A DNA stretch of 64,000 bases. Source: Eledone cirrhosa (Eukaryota). Within the stretch, counting starts at the first letter, position 1; the number at the start of each line of letters is the position of its first letter. Position numbers and translations under genes: made by a program. Positions 10,496 to 32,292 of this stretch are shown here, in pieces. Below the pieces are notes generated by a model. It did not search any database. It was given only the letters and a program-made list of their open reading frames with translations, and had not been told where the DNA came from. The stretch is taken from contig OZ024745.1 of NCBI GenBank assembly GCA_964016885.1, positions 50,406,001 to 50,470,000 of the forward strand, read 5' to 3'.

Positions 10496-10648
10496 TAAAG
10501 TGGTGCTTCATCAGTGATCTTCCAACCTTCATCGGTATTTCTTCGCTTTAAAGACCATATACCTCCGGTTGGTGCGAGCAACGGCTAAAGAAAGTCGTTG
10601 GGACACGTAAATAAAGGGAACAGCGAGAGTGTATATATATATATATAT

Positions 10649-10920
10649 CAAGAATCAAGAATCCCAAAAGTCAGCTCAAAAGTGACACAGAGGAGACTGA
10701 GGTTAGCTGGACATGCTCACCGACATCCAGAGTTGACATTGCACTCAGTGCTCCTGTGGGAGCCCCTACATGGACACACTGGAAGAGGAAGACCAAGGTA
10801 TGTTGATGCCCTAAGGACAGACACTGGTCTGTTGGAGACGCAGGACATGGCAGCGATAATGAGGGACAGAGACAGCTGGAGAGAAGTCGTCCATGGATCT
10901 CGGGAATTTTACCCGCCCTA
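10649..10920 (+). mobile_element. RTE-like LINE 3' fragment in (TA)n
   Basis: Encodes RRLRLAGHAHRHPEL...LLWEP.HG...RGRP, a C-terminus typical of RTE/RTEX ORF2. The ORF end runs directly into (TA)n. Confidence 0.8.
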
Positions 10921-10978
<58 letters not shown>

Positions 10979-11367
10979 CTCAATATATATTTCTCAATCA
11001 GCCGACACAAACCTACATTTGGCGCAAAATCAATTTTTAACATTCACATGACCTTTACCGACCAATCAAAATTGTTTTGACCACAAGAATTTTTGCAACA
11101 CGAATTGGCGCGGAACTTATTTTAATACATCTGGAGCCACTTTTTTTTTCACATAAAACAGGTAGAATTTCCAAAACTAATCAGATTAGAGCAAACATCA
11201 CGGGCGCTCTATCTCAAAATTATTTTTGAAAAGCATTAGAAATGCGCAACCGGTAAAACTTAAAACCAAAACTGAATACTAACCAATACTATTACTAATT
11301 TTCACTTATTCCTAATTAAACTATTTTTCACTGTGAACAATTTGTCAGCATTTTCTTTTCCGTTTAC

Positions 11368-11763: not shown

Positions 11764-12262
11764 ACGAGGTGTGTCAGAACAGAAACGGGAATGGGGGTAG
11801 TAAAAGAATATTTTAGATCCAAACTACAAGTTTTCCCATTCGAAATAATCCCCCTCGCGTCTAACACACATTCCTATACTTCTCCCGGAATTCTCCGCAG
11901 TTCTGTCGTCATGGCCCTCTTGATGGCTTCCACGCCCGGAAAATGGGTCGTACTTGAAGATCCATGACTCATCACCGGTGATGATTCTCACCAACAAGCC
12001 TGGTTCGGTTTCAAGACGGTCGAAGATGCCCTGGTACACCTGCATGTGCCGCTCCTTCTGGTCATCGTTCAACAGCTTCGCCACCATCTTCTCGCAGATC
12101 CTCCGCATGCCCAAATCTTCGGAGATAATCTTCCAAATGCTGTCAAGGTTCACGCCATGCTCACGATCGCCAAGCACCACCTGTCTCACGCGCACAACGT
12201 TGACCTCAGTCTTGCTTGTTGAAGGCCTTCCGCTCCTGAGGTCATCTTCCACTTTTTGTACG
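11763..12262 (-). mobile_element. Mariner transposase fragment
   Basis: EDDLRSGRPSTS...IISEDLGMRRI...RIITGDESWIFKYDP (HTH, degenerate WVPH-like linker and first catalytic D). TA-cgagg terminus at 11763. Confidence 0.85.
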
Positions 12263-12398
12263 ATATATATATATGAATATATACACTAGTCAATGAGAAC
12301 GGCAATAGTGTTGAACGTAATTAATTTTTGGAGTCAGGATCGGTATGCGTATATAACAAGGTTAAATGTATGTGTGTGTGAATATATATATATATATG

Positions 12399-19623: not shown

Positions 19624-20189
<566 letters not shown>

Positions 20190-20580
20190 ATTTCTTTATT
20201 TTGCCACAAGGCCACAAATAAGATTAGGACAATAAAACTCCATGCAGGGATGGGGTTACATTCGGTCGCAAAAATAAAATAGCAACAGCAAATAATGACA
20301 ACAAAATAAAAGTAATAATAAAAATGTCCTTAGTAGTGGATAGGGGTACAGTTATTTAGGGCAAATGAAGGAAACCCCTCGAAACTTAGTTAACTCTAAC
20401 CACTAAAAGCAAGTACCCTCTCTCAGTTATCGTCTTCCAGCCTACCGGCGCATGTTCAGGGTAGGCCCAGTAACCCGGGCCATGTTTTCCACTTTCACCA
20501 CTTGGAGGTAGGGCAACACTTTCCTCTTCAATTGAAACTTGAAGATATTGATGATAGCTTGGCTGGATAATACAATGAAC
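20190..20580 (-). mobile_element. Diverged 3' fragment of a related Tx1-like family abutting (TAG)n
   Basis: Starts tttctttattttgccaca like the Tx1 3' end. The segment cgggccatgttttccactttcaccac parallels cgggccattctcgccactttcacccac at the ORF2 C-terminus. Confidence 0.6.
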
Positions 20581-20975
20581 CAGCAGATAGAAGAGTATAT
20601 AAATAAATATAATATATCAACTAGATATCAAGCAACACATGGAAACAGAAAGAGTGAGAGAGAGACAGAGAAATTAATTATCTTATATGTGCCTTTATAA
20701 ACAGATAGACATACAGGAAGATAGATAGATAGATATATTTCTTTATTAGCCACAGGGGCACAAAAGAAGGGGACAAATACAAAGGGGGAAGTTTACATAC
20801 AATAAAAACGTGTAAAATGTTATCACAGATGGAATTTAAAAGTTAGTCGATTTTCCCCAATAGAGGGAGACAGTTTATATGGGTAACACATACCCCCGAA
20901 AAAAAATGTGCAACCCTCATCTCCAGGAGTACGAAGAGCTTGTACTCCTTTCCTCTCCTCCTTCTTTTCCTCAAC

Positions 20976-23900
20976 CTACAGGCTGATATAGAGAGAAGGC
21001 CCATTCACTCGGGCCATTCTCGCCACTTTCACCCACCTTTCATAAAACTTGCTGGGGTACAGCACCTCTCTCTCCATCCTGATTCTTCTTCCAAAGTGGT
21101 ATTTGAAAAAAAGAATCAGTTGTTGGCCGGAGAGAAAGGTGTCTGACCTCAGCCCTTTCAACCTTGTCCACCATACAACCTCTTTCGCCATAGCTATCAC
21201 ACAAAGGAAAACCGCCTCTCCTTCGTTTTTGAAGGAGGGTGGCGGTTTGATCATGACAATGGACTCGGTGGTCAACTGGGTTGGTCCCACCCGCGACAAT
21301 AGTCGTTCTACATAGCCCCACAGGTCAGTGACGCCCGGGCAGTGTATGAATGCGTGCGCGACGGTTTCTTCGTCTCGCACGCACCTCGGACAGATCTTTT
21401 TTGCAGGGTCCCTGCCCGGGCGCCCATGTCTGTAGAGCTTGTCTCGAACTGGTAGAGCTCCTCGGTAGCACTGCCAGGCCAGGGACTTTTGGAAGTTGTC
21501 CATGGGTCCCGGGCGGAAGGTCCTACCGAACAGACTGGCCAGTTCATCTTCCTCCACGCCTAGAGTTTCACCGAGCGCGTCGTCGCACTTGCTGCGGACC
21601 AACCCTCTATAGAATGACGAAGTGGAGTCTCCACTGATCTCCGGGTCCGCCTGCCAGAGGGCTGTGAGCGCCTGAGCACATTCGATGTGCCAGTCGCCCA
21701 TTTTCCTCGGTCTCTGCTTGACCCAGGACTGTAGCTCGGTCAGTGAGACGAGTCGTGGGAAGGCTCGCCTCACGAACGGGGCCCACACCGGTTGTCCGGT
21801 GAGGAATACGTAGAGATGCCGCAGCCTGAGCGCGTGTTTGCGCATCGTCAACCACGGCATCCCCAGCCCTCCGTTAGAAGGGTGTTGGCAGCAGATGGAT
21901 CTTCTTACCAAAGGAGCCCGCCTCTTCCAAAGGAATCGGAAGAGGGCGCGCTCCATTTTGGCGAGCGTTTTGGCTGGACAAGGCACGACGGTCAAGCGGT
22001 AGTAGATGGCGGACGCTATAAAAGTGTTCGCCACCTCCGCTCGACCTTTCAAGGATAGTTTGCACTCGGCCCACTTCTGGGTGAGTGCAAACACCTTGGC
22101 CGTCACTTCGTTCCAGTTCTTCTCCACCTGGAGGTCCGGACCAAACCAGACCCCGAGCAGCTTTACCGGTCCTTCCGTCCAGCGTCCGACGACGCCATCG
22201 GAAGGCATCGGTCTGCCTCTCCACGATCCGAGTTGCAAACCGATGGACTTGTCCCGGTTCAGCTTCGCTCCTGTGAGACTTTCGTATTCCTTCAGTAAGG
22301 TGCCGACTTCCTCGATTTGCGAGGCGCTCGACACCATTACTGTCACGTCGTCGGCGTAGGCCGACGCCGCTTTCCGCAGTCCCGGTTCCAGAGGGATGCC
22401 CTGCAATAGCTCCAGCTTCCGCAGTAATGGCTCGAGAGTCAGTACGTACAGAAGGGAGGAGAGAGGGCATCCCTGTCGAATGGATCGCGTAATATCGAAC
22501 GGCTCCGAGAGGTAACCGTTCACCTTGACCCTTGAGCAGATGTTGCTGTTGTGCATTGCAGCAATCCAGCCCCTGAACACGGGTCCGAAGCCTGCCGCCT
22601 CGAGCACCGCATCCAGGTAACGATGGTCAACCCTATCGAAAGCCTTAGACTGATCCAAGTTGATCAGGGCCCCACCAAAGCCGGGTTTACACCCTACCCT
22701 CTCTATGATGTATCGCATGAGGTGGAGGTTGTCGTGTATGGACCTGGTCGGGATTGCACATGTCTGCGCTTCTCCCACCAGGTTCTCGACGACAAGCGCC
22801 AGCCTCTTTGCCAACACCTTGGCCAAAATCTGTAACTCTGTGTTTAGCAGAGTTATGGGCCGGAAGTTGCCTATGTCATCCCCCTTATTCTCGTCCTTCC
22901 TGATTAGTGTGACCACGCCCCCGGTTACAGAACTGGGAATTCTCCCGTTCTGTTGCCAGTTGCAGTAGACCGCTTCCAGGAGACCGGAGAATAAGTCCGG
23001 CATTGCTACGTAAAATTCGTAGGGTAGACCGTCGAGACCTGGAGATTTGCGTTTGCCGCGTTGGCTCAGCGCGTCCCCTATCTCAGTGGCTGAAATCGGC
23101 TTTTCGCAGAACTTCGCCTCGCTGTCCGAGAGTCGCGGTAGGCCGTCGAGGTATGGACCGAAATCCATAGCCTCTCCCGGCGCGCCGCTCCCCCCGAACA
23201 GCCGAGCAAAGTGCCGCTGAAAAGCCGCACACATCTGCTTCGGCTCACGTATCACGCGTCCGTTTTGGTCCTTCAAAGACCGAATCGTGGACTTGTTGCC
23301 ACTTTTTGCCTCCGTCACTCGGGCCCAGCTAAGAGCTTTGGCTCCCTCGTTTCCCAGAGCACGTATTTTGCTTCTGACAACGCAGCCCTCGTGCTTTGCG
23401 TCGAAGAACTGGTCCAAGGCCGTTCTCGTCGCTAGCACGCTGGCTACGTTGCCACTTCTAATAGCCTCTTCTACTTTATCTACCAGTTCCTTCTCGGTTC
23501 TATTTCTATCTAACGCTAATTCTTTACTAAAAACTATCGAGTCTAATCTAACTGCCCTCTTGAGAGAGTACCACCATCTGTTGTTGACAATGGCCCCTGT
23601 CAAGTGCTGTTTAACTAAAGTGCTAATCCGTCTACTGTAGGCTTTGCTTGTCGGTAACGACAAGTTCAGCTTCCAGTAGCCGGGTCCTTGTCTATGGGTT
23701 CTATCAAGGTTGGCCATGCAGGTCACTAGTTTGTGATCTGAATAGGCAACCATGAACATTTGTGGACAGCTTAACATGTCCCTATCCTTATTTCTAACTA
23801 GAACCCTATCTAGGTACGATCTAGATGTTCCGCTACGATTACTCCACGTCCACAGTGGCGCAGTCGGAAAATCTAGTCGATATCTATCGGCCAGGTCAAA

Positions 23901-24413
23901 TCGGTCGATTAACTGTTTGAGGCTGTTACACCCCCCTTTATCGGGACATGCTCCCACATAGTCCCAACGTGCATCTAGGATTCCATTCCAGTCCCCCACT
24001 AGAAGCAAGGAGCGGGACGTTCCCAGAAAAGTCTCTAGACGTTTGAAGAAGTCTGGCCGCGGTGTCCCGGATGGGGCATATGCGGCCACCAGCCTGAACG
24101 CTCCACCTTCACTACCGTCAACGTCTAGGACCACCAGTCGACCCTCCGGGTCCAGATGTACCGTCTGTGTTACGAGGCCCAGGTGTTTCCGCAGCAAAAC
24201 GGCAACTCCGCCCCCACCCCCCGGTTGACAGAGAGATGCGTAGATCTCAAAGTCATCGAAGATGGGGGCCAGCTGTCGCTCGCCGTGGATCCTCGACTCG
24301 CAAATGGCTACCACATCCAAACTGTGCGACCTGAGGTCGTTTAAGAGTTTGCCCTGTTTCCAGGGCATCCCCAGGCCGCGTACGTTCACACATCCAACTC
24401 TTATATTGGCCAT
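20976..24413 (-). CDS. LINE ORF2: APE endonuclease, reverse transcriptase and C-terminal zinc finger (1145 aa)
   Basis: EN motifs NVRGL, GDWN, SYLDRV, SDH and WKLN. RT motifs KSPGLDGLP.EFY, FRPITLLN, LDQSKAFDRVDH, IRQGCPLS and AYADDV. C-terminal CPRC...ETVAHAFIHC. Confidence 0.97.
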   Translation of the reverse strand: MANIRVGCVNVRGLGMPWKQGKLLNDLRSHSLDVVAICESRIHGERQLAPIFDDFEIYASLCQPGGGGGVAVLLRKHLGLVTQTVHLDPEGRLVVLDVDGSEGGAFRLVAAYAPSGTPRPDFFKRLETFLGTSRSLLLVGDWNGILDARWDYVGACPDKGGCNSLKQLIDRFDLADRYRLDFPTAPLWTWSNRSGTSRSYLDRVLVRNKDRDMLSCPQMFMVAYSDHKLVTCMANLDRTHRQGPGYWKLNLSLPTSKAYSRRISTLVKQHLTGAIVNNRWWYSLKRAVRLDSIVFSKELALDRNRTEKELVDKVEEAIRSGNVASVLATRTALDQFFDAKHEGCVVRSKIRALGNEGAKALSWARVTEAKSGNKSTIRSLKDQNGRVIREPKQMCAAFQRHFARLFGGSGAPGEAMDFGPYLDGLPRLSDSEAKFCEKPISATEIGDALSQRGKRKSPGLDGLPYEFYVAMPDLFSGLLEAVYCNWQQNGRIPSSVTGGVVTLIRKDENKGDDIGNFRPITLLNTELQILAKVLAKRLALVVENLVGEAQTCAIPTRSIHDNLHLMRYIIERVGCKPGFGGALINLDQSKAFDRVDHRYLDAVLEAAGFGPVFRGWIAAMHNSNICSRVKVNGYLSEPFDITRSIRQGCPLSSLLYVLTLEPLLRKLELLQGIPLEPGLRKAASAYADDVTVMVSSASQIEEVGTLLKEYESLTGAKLNRDKSIGLQLGSWRGRPMPSDGVVGRWTEGPVKLLGVWFGPDLQVEKNWNEVTAKVFALTQKWAECKLSLKGRAEVANTFIASAIYYRLTVVPCPAKTLAKMERALFRFLWKRRAPLVRRSICCQHPSNGGLGMPWLTMRKHALRLRHLYVFLTGQPVWAPFVRRAFPRLVSLTELQSWVKQRPRKMGDWHIECAQALTALWQADPEISGDSTSSFYRGLVRSKCDDALGETLGVEEDELASLFGRTFRPGPMDNFQKSLAWQCYRGALPVRDKLYRHGRPGRDPAKKICPRCVRDEETVAHAFIHCPGVTDLWGYVERLLSRVGPTQLTTESIVMIKPPPSFKNEGEAVFLCVIAMAKEVVWWTRLKGLRSDTFLSGQQLILFFKYHFGRRIRMEREVLYPSKFYERWVKVARMARVNGPSLYISL

Positions 24414-24446
24414 GTTGGTGCTGAAAAGTTAAAAGAGGAAAAGAGA

Positions 24447-24970
24447 TCACTCACCCTTCGCCTCCTGGGGACCAGGCCGCACGATTTCCATGGGGGTGTT
24501 GGAGGGGTTGTCTGGATGGGTGGTGGTTTCCGGCGGGGTGGGGACGCAGATGTTTGGTGGGGTGGGGTCTGGTGGGATGGGGGTGTCTGGGGTGGGGAGG
24601 CATTTGAGAAGGACGCGGTTGAGTGGTTTCACGCAGGAATTCCCCACATCCTTCTCAAATGTTTCTTTTAGGGACCTATAAGTTTGTATAGGGACCCTAA
24701 TCAGTTTTAGGTTCATTTTTTTGCTATTTTTTATAGAGTGGGCGAAAGTTTTCCCTTCGGTGAAAACCGAAAGGTCGTTCGTAATGGTCTCCATTAGTGT
24801 TTTGTTTTCAGTGTTTATGTAAGTGTAAGTGTAATTTTCTTGTGTTGTGTTTGTTTTTGTCTGTAGTTCTTGTGTGTGCTTTCGTTTTGTTGTAGGTATT
24901 TTGTTTTCAGGAGGTGGGGGTTTTGTTTGTGATATGTTTGTTGTTTGTGTTGGTGGTTGTATGTTTGTGG
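24447..24970 (-). pseudogene. 3' remnant of ORF1 of the Tx1-like element
   Basis: Open frame ending with a Pro-rich tail 33 bp before the ORF2 ATG. Its 5' end is cut off by the (GATA)n tract. Confidence 0.5.
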
Positions 24971-25028
<58 letters not shown>

Positions 25029-25701
25029 TGTTTCTTTATTAGCCACAGGGGCACAAAAGAAGGGGACAAATACAAAGGAGGAAGTTTACATACAATAAAA
25101 ACGTGTAAAATGTTATCACATGCAATTTTAAAAATTAGTCGATTTTCCCCAATAGAGGGAGACAGTTTATATGGGTAACACATACCCCCGAAAAAATGTG
25201 AAACCCTCATCTCCAGGAGTACGAAGAGTTTGTACTCCTTTCCTCTCCTCCTCCTTTTCCTCAACCTACAGGCTGATATAGAGAGAAGGCCCATTCACTC
25301 GGGCCATTCTCGCCACTTTCACCCACCTTTCATAAAACTTGCTGGGATACAGCACCTCTCTCTCCATCCTGATTCTTCTTCCAAAGTGGTATTTGAAAAA
25401 AAGAATCAGTTGTTGGCCGGAGAGAAAGGTATCTGACCTCAGCCCTTTCAACCTTGTCCACCATACAACCTCTTTCGCCATAGCTATCACACAAAGGAAA
25501 ACCGCCTCTCCTTCGTTTTTGAAGGAGGGTGGCGATTTGATCATGACAATGGACTCGGTGGTCAACCTGATTGGTCCCACCCGCGACAATAGTCGTTCTA
25601 CATAGCCCCACAGCTCAGTGACGCCCGGGCAGTGTATGAATGCGTGTGCGACGGTTTCTTCGTTACGCACGCACCTCGGACAGATTTTTTTTTGCAGGGT
25701 C
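25029..25701 (-). mobile_element. Second, 5'-truncated copy of the Tx1-like element
   Basis: Near-identical to 20736-21410 (zinc finger C-terminus and 3' UTR). Bounded by (GATA)n at 24971-25028 and 25702-25718. Confidence 0.93.
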
Positions 25702-25718
25702 AGATAGATAGATAGATA

Positions 25719-25813
25719 TATTTCTTTATTAGCCACAGGAGCACAAAAGAAGGGGACAAATACAAAGGGGGAAGTTTACATACAATAAAAACGTGTAAAA
25801 TGTTATCACAGAT
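25719..25813 (-). mobile_element. Third, ~95-bp 3'-end copy of the Tx1-like element
   Basis: tttctttattagccacag..cacaaaagaaggggacaaatac...tgttatcacagat, again between (GATA)n tracts. Confidence 0.9.
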
Positions 25814-26352
25814 ATAGATAGATAGATAGATAGATAGATAAATATTAATACAGAGATACAACGAAAAACGAACAGATATATTCAGATCTTGTTTTCATTT
25901 AAGTAAATACTTTCTTGCCTGATAGAAAAGCCATTCTCCAAACTACACACCACCTCAACGGACTAACTCACTTTGACTGGTACCTCTCATGCTTCCTTAA
26001 CTTGATATACAAGTTTCTAAAATATCCCCATTATGCACACACTTAAACATTTCCTCACCACAGAGGGGTGGTCATCGTCGTAATAGCCTATATCAAGTCT
26101 AAACCTTTCTTAAGCCCAGAGGTTCGTCAGACCGATGCTTACCTCGGTTTACAATCTCCGCCCCTAGATAGGACGCCAGTCCATCGCAGAGTTAAATCCT
26201 TAATTACTGTTGTTACTCATTTTCATTTGAGTAGAGTGAGGCAACGTTAAATGAACTGTTTTGCTCAAGAACACAACACGCATCCATGACCAGGAATCGA
26301 ACCCACGACATTATGATCATAAGTCCAACCCCCTTACCACTCGGACACTTGT

Positions 26353-29192: not shown

Positions 29193-32100
29193 ATGACTGA
29201 TGTAAAACTACCGGAAGAATTTACCAATGACCACACAGTAAATATTTATGGGAACACTGTAATTAGTGAACAAGAACAACAAATCCTGCGGCTACCACCA
29301 AAATTTGCCATCTACAAAAAGATTAACCCTATGGAGTGCAAAACGGAGATGGAAAAGTGTTTCACAAAAATACGTTGGAATGCAAAGGTAAACAACAACA
29401 ACAACAACAACAACAATAATAACGGTAGTAGTAATATAAACAATAACTCTGAGTACAGAAATAACAGCCATGACAATAACAATAGCAGGAAAGTGAGAAA
29501 TAGTAATAATGGTAATAATACTAACGATAGACAGAACAACAACAACAACCACAATAATAATAATAATAATAATAGAAACATTAACCACAGACACAGCAGC
29601 AGCGACCACAGTAGTAATAACGGTAACAATACGAACAACAACAACAACAATAACCACAGTGGTAATAATGGAAATAATACATGTAGCAACATCAATGATA
29701 GACACAACAAAAACAAGAAACATAATAAAAGTAACAACCACAATGGTAGAAATAACAGTAACAACAACAACAATAACGGTGAAGTAAACAACAATACATC
29801 TAGCAATCATAACAATAATAATAATGCTAATGATAGAAACAACAACCACCATGATAACAATAATAGCAACACACACAACTATGACGATAGATATAATGAC
29901 AACCCCTTAGAGAAACTATTTTTCAACCCAGCTGACAAAACATATAAGATGGGTAATATCTATCCTACGAGGTTACCCTTTAATAAAAGAGTGTGCATAC
30001 CACAACAAATAGATGACGAGACAGAGGCACAGTTCACCATAGCTAGAAATAAGATTAGAAAAATAGTAGACAGGTATACTAAGAGACAGAGCAGACCAGA
30101 GGCCCAACAACTTGGGAGGAAACCTGTAGAAGGCTTGGTTAGCCTCAAGCAGCGCACAAGGGATGGTGAGGTAGTATGTCTATCCACAGATAAGTCTGGT
30201 AGGATGTCAATAGATAGCATGCCGAACTACATCAAGGCTATGCAACCCCACATCACCAACACGAGCGAAATTGCACAACAAACACACGATGGGAGAGAGA
30301 AAATCCTCAACGCTCACATGATGATGTGGACTGACATCCTAAAGCCGAGCAGACGCACTGCCAACAACTTCCAGGCGTCTAACAATGGCATACCACCCTT
30401 GTATGGGCTCCGCAAAGACCACAAGATAGTCGACGACCCGACAACAGGACCACCAACAAGACCCGTATGCGGAGCTAATATAGCTAGCAACTACAGGATC
30501 TCCTACTTCCTCTCAATGGTTATACGCCCCATAATCAAGATGTCCCCAGATGTATGTGACAGTACAGAGGACCTCCTCGGCAGAATCAGTGAATGCAACA
30601 AAAACAGGAACCTATCCAGCTGCATAATAGGCAGCATGGATGTGGTGTCATTGTACCCATCCATTAACATTGATTTTGCTGGGAAAAGATGTGTGGAGAT
30701 GATCATTGAGAGTGAGGTGGAGTTCTGCGACGTCGACACAGACGAACTGGGCCTACTACTTAGACTTACCTACGACACTGACTACCTAGACAGCCATGAC
30801 CTTAGATGTTTCTGCCCTAGTAGACCTATAAGAGGTAGAACCCCACCATAACCTCTATGGCAAAAAAGACTCCCATGGGAAGGTGGATTGGGTGGACCAA
30901 AGATATACGGACCCCCCAAAACAATGATCAGGTAAGAAAAATGGTCGCACATGCAATAGGGGCTAGTATCAAAACTACCCTAAAGGGCCACATATTTAAG
31001 TTTAACGAGAAGATCTACACCCAAAATGAGGGAGCAACCATCGGCGTCAGCATAGCTGGTGATGTTGCCAACCTTTTCATGGTATGGTGGGAAAGGAGAC
31101 TTAAAGATCTCCTTAATGAGAGCTCCATAGACCTCATCATGTACTCTCGTTATGTAGACGATATCAATATAGTTATAAGAACACCCCCACTAGAGAGCAC
31201 TAACAAGTTTGAATTAGAACGTAGCACGATGGAAAGCATCTAGCAGATAGCTAATTCCATACACCAGACTATAACTGTAACTATCGACTTCCCTTCCAAA
31301 CACCCTAACAGTAGACTACCTGTATTAGACACAGAACTCTGGATTAACACTACAGACGAAAGAGCCCAAATTCTCCACTCACACTATGCTAAACCCATGG
31401 CCTCCAAATACCTGATACTCAAAAACTCAGCAATGTCCAGTAGTGCTAAGTTTAATATTCTGATCGCAGATTTGGTACGGGTGATGAAGAATGTGTCCCG
31501 CATGTGCGACCCAACAGAAATGGAAAGACACATCCAACACTTCATCAATCGCATACAGTTCTCTGGCTACAACCAAAGAGACAGAGTCAGAGTATACGAA
31601 GGAGCCATGGAGAAGTATAAGACCCTCATAGAACTGGATATGAAAGGAATTTGCCCATTATACAGGAGCAAATCATGGAATAGTTTAGATAGGGAAAGCC
31701 ACCTCATGGTACGACAACCAGAGATACCAGAGTGTCATGTTTGTGGACGCTACCCCTGGAGGGAAATTAGCTAACCAGTGTAGAAAGGCCCCGAGAAAGA
31801 CCCACCTAAAAATAAAGGTTGTTAGAAAAGCCAGGAACCACCATAAAATCCCTGATCAGCAAAACCTACCCTTTTAAGAAAACCCACTGTACCAATAGGA
31901 AATGTATCATATGTAAGGTGAACCCCCGGATAAACTGTAAAACTAGAAACGTCGTCTATAGCATAAGATGTACAGAGGGTACCTGCAGAAACATGACAAC
32001 AACATACATAGGTGAGACAGCTCGTAGCATAGGTGAAAGGGTAGACCAACACTGGGGGGAACTAAAAGGACGAAAAAACAGGTCAGTACTATACGAACAT

Positions 32101-32292
32101 GCTAGACAACAACATGACGGTAACATAGACAACATAGAAATTAGAATAATATCTAAACATAGAAATGACCCAGCAGAGAGGCAAATCAGAGAGGCCAGTG
32201 AAATAGAAATTAGAAGACCAAGGCTAAACAGAAAGAATGAATGGAATAACAACAACACCCAAACAAACAACACTGACCTAAGAGAAGTATAA
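29193..32292 (+). pseudogene. Penelope-like RT-GIY-YIG polyprotein, disrupted
   Basis: Motifs TDKSG, LYGLRKDHK, TRPV, SMDVVSLYPSI, YTQNEGATIG and YSRYVDDI, a linker C-x4-C-x2-C, and EN NVVYSIRC...YIGETARSIGERVDQH. Frameshifts at ~30840 and ~31700 and an in-frame TAG at 31241. Confidence 0.9.

Follow-up and report, generated by a model that had tools for sequence, protein, structure and literature searches.

A young LINE, probably of Tx1 type, with copies in (TATC)n microsatellites of the octopod Eledone cirrhosa

Background

Long interspersed nuclear elements (LINEs) of the Tx1 clade insert into a range of defined sequences, which in the sections of Kojima 2015 drawn on here include (TC)n, (TTC)n, (TTCC)n, (TTTC)n, U2 and transposons (PMC4494074). 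Kibi is found in (TC)n, Koshi in (TTC)n and crocodilian Tx1 families in (TTCC)n/(TTTC)n, and in the same sections a family is taken to be target-specific when one sequence type accounts for >20% of its flanks (PMC4494074). The element considered here, from a 64-kb stretch of the E. cirrhosa genome ("the window", contig positions 50406001-50470000), is like Kibi and Koshi, as described there, an L1-group LINE with an apurinic endonuclease (APE) and a preference for a short pyrimidine-rich microsatellite, and it far exceeds the 20% threshold. Compared by description, it differs in its octopod host and in its main target, which is TATC (ATT in relatives) rather than (TC)n, (TTC)n, (TTCC)n or (TTTC)n. 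We consider it very probable that the association is real and target-specific, that is, that copies of a young 5.85-kb LINE lie with a single orientation in (TATC)n/(GATA)n tracts and carry target duplications of 12-21 bp.

For Tx1L of Xenopus laevis, which targets a site in the Tx1D transposon, the part of PMC1950540 consulted locates specificity in the endonuclease and describes a target-reading loop in the L1 and Tx1L endonucleases. Tx1L has the same domain order as the TATC family, but its loop carries an RDGH tip, which occurs in none of the related proteins compared here. In Octopus vulgaris, the part of PMC13282606 consulted counts 80 L1-Tx1 families occupying 56 Mb, 13 of them recently active with 421 insertions (2.29 Mb, about 5.4 kb each), and also records Dong-R4 as abundant in octopus; by description, the insertions are near the TATC element in length. 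In the cephalopod literature, as far as consulted and including PMC13282606, L1-Tx1 is recorded without a stated target preference, and the word "GATA" is absent from the main text of that paper. No TATC- or GATA-targeting Tx1 element was found in the portions of the literature consulted (including PMC4494074, PMC4640811, PMC8869645, PMC5203782, PMC8967140 and PMC13282606), a survey that did not cover Repbase/Dfam, and priority is uncertain. With this element, the few microsatellite-targeting APE LINEs gain TATC as a target and a further group of hosts.

Dong, of the R4 clade, sits in TAA repeats, and Waldo and Mino in (AC)n. Togen targets (TG)n, according to the part of PMC4640811 consulted. 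All resemble the present element in being microsatellite-targeting LINEs, but they belong to other clades (with a restriction-like endonuclease, or the R1 clade), whereas even the ATT-associated relatives described below have an APE domain.

The stack in the window

The window contains three minus-strand copies of one LINE, which at full length measures 5.85 kb (~5846 bp); the copies (4236, 673 and 95 bp) have a common 3' end and distinct 5' breakpoints. Copy A (20736..24971) is 5'-truncated, with about 1.6 kb missing, and is 99.2% identical to the full-length copy L063. Its 3' untranslated region (UTR; 20736..20975) ends in AATAAAGAAA-TA without poly(A). The second open reading frame (ORF2; 20976..24413) is uninterrupted over 1145 amino acids, as an earlier sequence-only reading of this DNA had stated, and encodes an APE endonuclease (PF03372), a reverse transcriptase (RT; PF00078) and zf-RVT (PF13966); upstream lies a C-terminal remnant (24447..24970) of ORF1, a protein of 638 amino acids with one CCHC knuckle in full-length copies. 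Copy B (25029..25701) is an older variant, 96.6% identical to L063, and copy C (25719..25813) is the element's final 95 bp.

Every junction of the stack is a repeat tract that reads (TATC)n on the element (minus) strand: (TATC)4 of 16 bp at the 3' junction of A (20720..20735), likely the duplicated target; (TATC)14 between the 3' end of B and the 5' end of A (24972..25028), with which the 5' junction of A has a 3-nt microhomology; (TATC)4T of 17 bp between the 3' end of C and the 5' end of B (25702..25718), the length of a typical target duplication; and (TATC)n with a single TA interruption at the 5' junction of C (25814..25844). These 4/4 junction tracts are the only (GATA)>=3 tracts in the window, which holds 102 tracts of (TA)>=6 and 54 of (CA)>=6. 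The same-orientation stack of three copies with distinct truncations, and the GATA tract at each junction, had both been proposed from the letters of the sequence and are confirmed. The 3' ends had been called identical, and this requires correction: A and C end in ..GAAA-TA and B in ..GAAA-CA. In aligned bases A matches B at 670/688 and C at 111/112.

The stack likely represents three separate insertions into one tract. Three events, with B likely first, are favoured by the differing breakpoints, by the 3.4% divergence of B from L063 and by its CA end; the 16-bp tract behind A and the 17-bp tract behind C fit one target duplication each.

Target preference across the genome

Genome-wide counts refer to the 3.0-Gb assembly. 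The 22-nt motif of the element's 3' end has 6335 exact matches, of which 5784 (91%) are followed by TATC/TCTC within 0-2 nt; none (0/6335) is followed by the repeat in opposite orientation (GATAGA), and 122 are followed by (TA)n. In a background sample of 200 kb (20 stretches of 10 kb, each placed at a round coordinate), the frequency of TATC is 0.17% and (TA)n tracts outnumber TATC tracts by 222 to 6. The preference extends to sister lineages, where TATC/TCTC adjoins six sister 3'-end motifs in 40/43 cases. Only few copies abut (TC)n, CATCTCT following 3/121 3' ends.

At the 5' side, a positional sample was formed by the first 54 consecutive 3' ends on contig C1; TATC repeats precede 21/21 of its copies that are >=98% identical to L063 (one of them read from separate data). 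A scripted count of own-genome loci with copies >=98% identical and the flank in view, internally deleted copies being left out, gave TATC repeats at 67/75 young 5' junctions (89%). Of the eight misses, two are true ones; two others have degenerate tracts and two have minimal targets, while the last pair consists of a direct nest and a script artefact. Random 5' flanks would point to a self-encoded tail; in both counts the young copies instead lie behind TATC. The (GATA)n specificity suggested for the window is thus upheld genome-wide, the 3' and the young 5' flanks both passing the Kojima 2015 threshold.

Several observations weigh against this reading. TATC/TCTC is lacking at 551/6335 3' ends, and by eye only 20/33 older copies (<98%) show 5' TATC, although many of these are internally deleted and their true 5' end may not be reached. 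L094 and L095, both young and near full length, lack a 5' repeat, and the target of L026 is just TATCT. The full-length sample described below was picked by similarity to copy A, so that its youth is overstated. As for the window itself, reads on the stack displayed no empty allele among 15/733 joints, left the inner junctions unbridged and supported the left junction only.

An apparent cluster of truncations 360-390 bp from the 3' end (12/30 loci) recurred in only 3 or 4/54 members of the positional sample and is attributed to search bias. In one truncated copy a 5' segment (L008:1879-1949) is inverted, as twin priming would leave it, and GATA repeats border its inverted end. Another GATA-associated element may be represented by an unrelated non-coding repeat that terminates in TATTTATC(TATC)n at both L182:1242-1574 and L191:1258-1590; the two copies share 97% identity over 333 bp.

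Target duplications, tails and local copies

Twelve target duplications contain at least two non-repeat bases; after removal of L017 and L019 (tandem duplicates) and L075 (which overlaps the element's repeat-like start), nine remain, of 12-21 bp (median 17), including 0-4 nt in common with the element's 5' end. All nine begin at TATC, run into unique DNA and add no further 3' units, which argues that the repeat is mainly target, supplied by the site, and not tail. The exact nick cannot be placed because RNA and target may share TATC letters. Poly(A) was seen at one locus only (L019, 2/75 rows).

That the TATC repeat is instead a tail made by the element, with stacks arising from landings in older tails, appears very improbable, even though a loose motif, at least one of whose matches looks false, places 20/34 full-length copies <200 bp behind some other 3' end, and the 5' ends of full-length copies bear repeat-like units of their own. 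Of 23 distinct long-tract loci obtained from the first 30 long-tract matches, 11 touch the family or a sister, as tails would, but 12 have no family member within 1.5 kb. Copies at unique sites (L022, L026, L159, L168) show no 3' repeat past the duplication, and solitary 5'-truncated copies with varied breakpoints still have 5' tracts. Still less credible, in our estimate, is an origin of the window stack by local duplication (unequal crossing-over between tracts) or by misassembly. Local duplication does occur in the TATC family, identical breakpoints recurring at L017, L019 and L023, but the window has three breakpoints among three copies, B differs from A by 2.6% and has the older CA end, and stacks elsewhere combine families only 74-86% identical. 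Against misassembly, a contig of run X1, possibly from the assembled individual, spans 20200-20746 without difference, the inner junctions being unbridged. Stacking by independent insertion, as first proposed, is therefore likely for the window with its distinct breakpoints, and may not extend to some other stacks (L017, L019, L023), which resemble local duplication. At L019 five copies stand in tandem. Four of the five share a breakpoint, and two of the five have poly(A) directly after GAAATAT, as if a single polyadenylated insertion had been amplified locally.

Upstream repeat variants

Full-length copies start with (TATC)n-(TCTC)0-2-TATC-AG, always in four-base phase, and the number of TCTC units tracks the haplotype of the element body. 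One haplotype, represented by six copies at six places, has two units in all of them. Pairs of identical haplotype agree in TCTC count in 22/26 cases, compared with a mean of 10.1 when labels were permuted among 31 copies (p=0.0007). Since the repeat variants track the haplotype, the RNA likely begins inside the upstream repeat, and on the simplest reading of these sequences transcription would start at least 8-12 nt inside it, with several source copies at work. The proposal that the repeat is target accordingly needs a qualification: it holds for the flanking tracts, while full-length copies likely bring 2-3 repeat-like units themselves at their 5' end.

Sister families of the TATC group with unrelated 5' UTRs also include full-length members that start right after a TATC tract (L002/L024/L025/L105/L180; L064/L065/L070/L074/L088; L066/L073; L019/L086). 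Some of these 5' UTRs contain the splice-donor-like word GTAAGT.

Classification, age and coding capacity

The element has the L1-group architecture of an ORF1 followed by an ORF2 with N-terminal APE, RT and a C-terminal cysteine domain, together with the habits of that group: 5' truncation, a fixed 3' end and target-site duplication. The best solved relative of ORF2 is human L1 ORF2 (E 4e-51), ahead of R2, and the APE catalytic motifs are present and align with those of human L1. ORF1 has a CX2CX4HX4C motif at 344-360, for which the Pfam zf-CCHC match is below cut-off (E 0.24); Transposase_22 was not found in it, and its Atlas neighbours (0.90-0.92) are of the CCHC/RRM type. Tx1-clade elements have a Type I ORF1 (RRM-like plus CCHC), not Transposase_22, according to the part of PMC5203782 consulted, and the ORF1 found here is of this type, a feature also of plant L1 and so not exclusive. 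The named proteins nearest to ORF2 are from Argonauta hians (63%), then from fish and frog, and homolog searches and the Atlas returned no named Tx1 references. Membership in the Tx1 clade is likely to judge from architecture; the trees built here contain no named Tx1 members.

The youngest 5'-end motif has 150 matches. Around the best matches to the 5' part of copy A, 39 stretches were taken, 31 with a complete element; both ORFs are open in 16/31 (ORF1 of 638 or 634 amino acids, ORF2 of 1145) and ORF2 in 22/31. Pairwise distances among these 31 average 0.45%, with a minimum of 0.017%, which would correspond to roughly 0.6 My under the calibration given in the part of PMC13282606 consulted (distance 0.09 = 25 My). 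A sister ORF2 shares 910/1145 residues with that of the window, and dN/dS for this pair is 0.17. Intact, near-identical copies and several haplotypes point to a young family that may be active at present. Pieces of the lineage occur in 5/20 stretches of the round-coordinate sample (L286-L305), about 4% of 200 kb. Sequencing runs of seven other organisms contain at least 0.2 of the family's words, and the two compared match closely in pieces; no RNA run is among the runs listed as containing these words.

Relatives associated with (ATT)n

Families whose 3' ends are built in the same style and run into (ATT)n give 8812 matches to a pattern that itself includes the ATT repeat. Sixteen stretches of this ATT group were chosen mostly for ~6-kb spacing, a biased sample. 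They contain intact ORF2s, 68% identical to that of the TATC family and with an APE domain, and copies 99% alike stand in head-to-tail stacks through (ATT)n. The 5' repeat evidence is weaker in this group, 8/15 after four rows were dropped; an initial count of 3/14 was confounded by internal deletions and was set aside. In L386-L401 (contig C1), at least five types of ATT-group 5' UTR alternate in head-to-tail stacks with ~6-kb spacing.

The two groups rarely exchange targets, with two ATT-family ends followed by TATCT and two TATC-family ends by ATTATT. In a tree of ORF2 residues 651-1145, in which the window family is represented by the ORF2 of L063 (98.4% identical to the window ORF2) and L181 takes its TATC label from its 5' tract alone, the TATC rows, seven in all, are monophyletic (98/99). 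The comparison suggests a target switch between the groups, and the likely origin of the TATC group is among (ATT)n-associated relatives, which are themselves still young in this genome. Counting against this rooting of the switch, the TATC clade is surrounded by a polytomy that holds P0001, the Argonauta protein and the ATT rows; ATT is thus no more than the likely older state. Further out, 37 proteins of about 40% identity (P0003-P0039) make up the sister clade of the octopod families, and their hairpin loops are longer and vary more; a metagenome scan for the DNA around them gave only 24-42% relatives, with (TATC)>=3 at 0/80 loci.

What may set the target

In the mechanism proposed, the APE domain would nick the GATA strand, and RT would prime at the nick and start at a fixed RNA position, ..GAAA(U/C)A, normally without copying poly(A). 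A second cut would fall about 17 nt downstream, where the repeat would not be needed. The duplication would leave about four repeat units per side, so that each insertion would renew its site. Transcription, too, likely starts within the repeat that precedes the source copy, so that a full-length cDNA would carry a target-like end with which its 5' side could be joined.

We lean towards a choice of target led by the endonuclease and aided by pairing. A choice set mainly by RNA pairing is possible but has, in our judgement, rather less than an even chance; here run-on (UAUC)n RNA would pair with any nicked GATA strand, the endonuclease would be loose, and a target switch would need no protein change, source copies all lying in tracts. 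This alternative equally takes the repeat as target, not tail. It draws on the rarity of poly(A), on the upstream repeat variants that travel with the haplotype, and on the endonuclease hairpin loop, which is nearly the same in the TATC group (WTWSNRSGTSRSYLDR) and the ATT group (WTWTNRIGSSRSYLDR), a similarity that tells against our preference in that it weakens a purely loop-led choice. Other endonuclease positions, however, differ consistently between the groups; variable pairing registers should sometimes add 3' TATC units, which the nine resolved duplications lack; and the Tx1L endonuclease alone is sequence-specific in vitro, as reported in the part of PMC1950540 consulted. A broader reading, which we regard as unlikely though worth stating, is that an octopod LINE lineage has split into (TATC)n and (ATT)n groups, both active and together on about half of the long GATA tracts, with targets inherited largely through RNA that starts and ends in host repeat; the flanking microsatellite would then be a heritable guide, and a switch would need little protein change.

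It is important to emphasize that the two groups offer a natural pair, with intact ORF2s 68% identical, almost exclusive targets and near-identical hairpin loops, so that the roles of endonuclease and RNA pairing are testable by domain and RNA swaps. LINE target choice bears on tools for site-specific gene insertion, and octopus GATA microsatellite markers often adjoin multicopy LINE ends.

Other features of the window

A fourth member of the lineage, absent from the sequence-only reading, lies beside the stack. This diverged relative (20190..~20570, minus strand) is a 3' fragment with a degenerate ORF2 C-terminus whose 3' end, ..GTGGCAAAATAAAGAAA, abuts a (TAC)n/(TAG)n tract of 566 bp (19624..20189, minus strand). 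No close copy was found elsewhere in the genome, the best matches being 69-89% over short pieces, and the (TAC)n tract may be either what is left of an ATT tract or a target of a third kind.

By eye, two broken frames at 31244-32289 (plus strand) resemble parts of a Penelope-like element, namely the end of its RT and its GIY-YIG endonuclease, a fragment at 11827-12285 (minus strand) resembles a mariner transposase, and another at 10589-11077 (plus strand) resembles the C-terminus of an RTE-type LINE.

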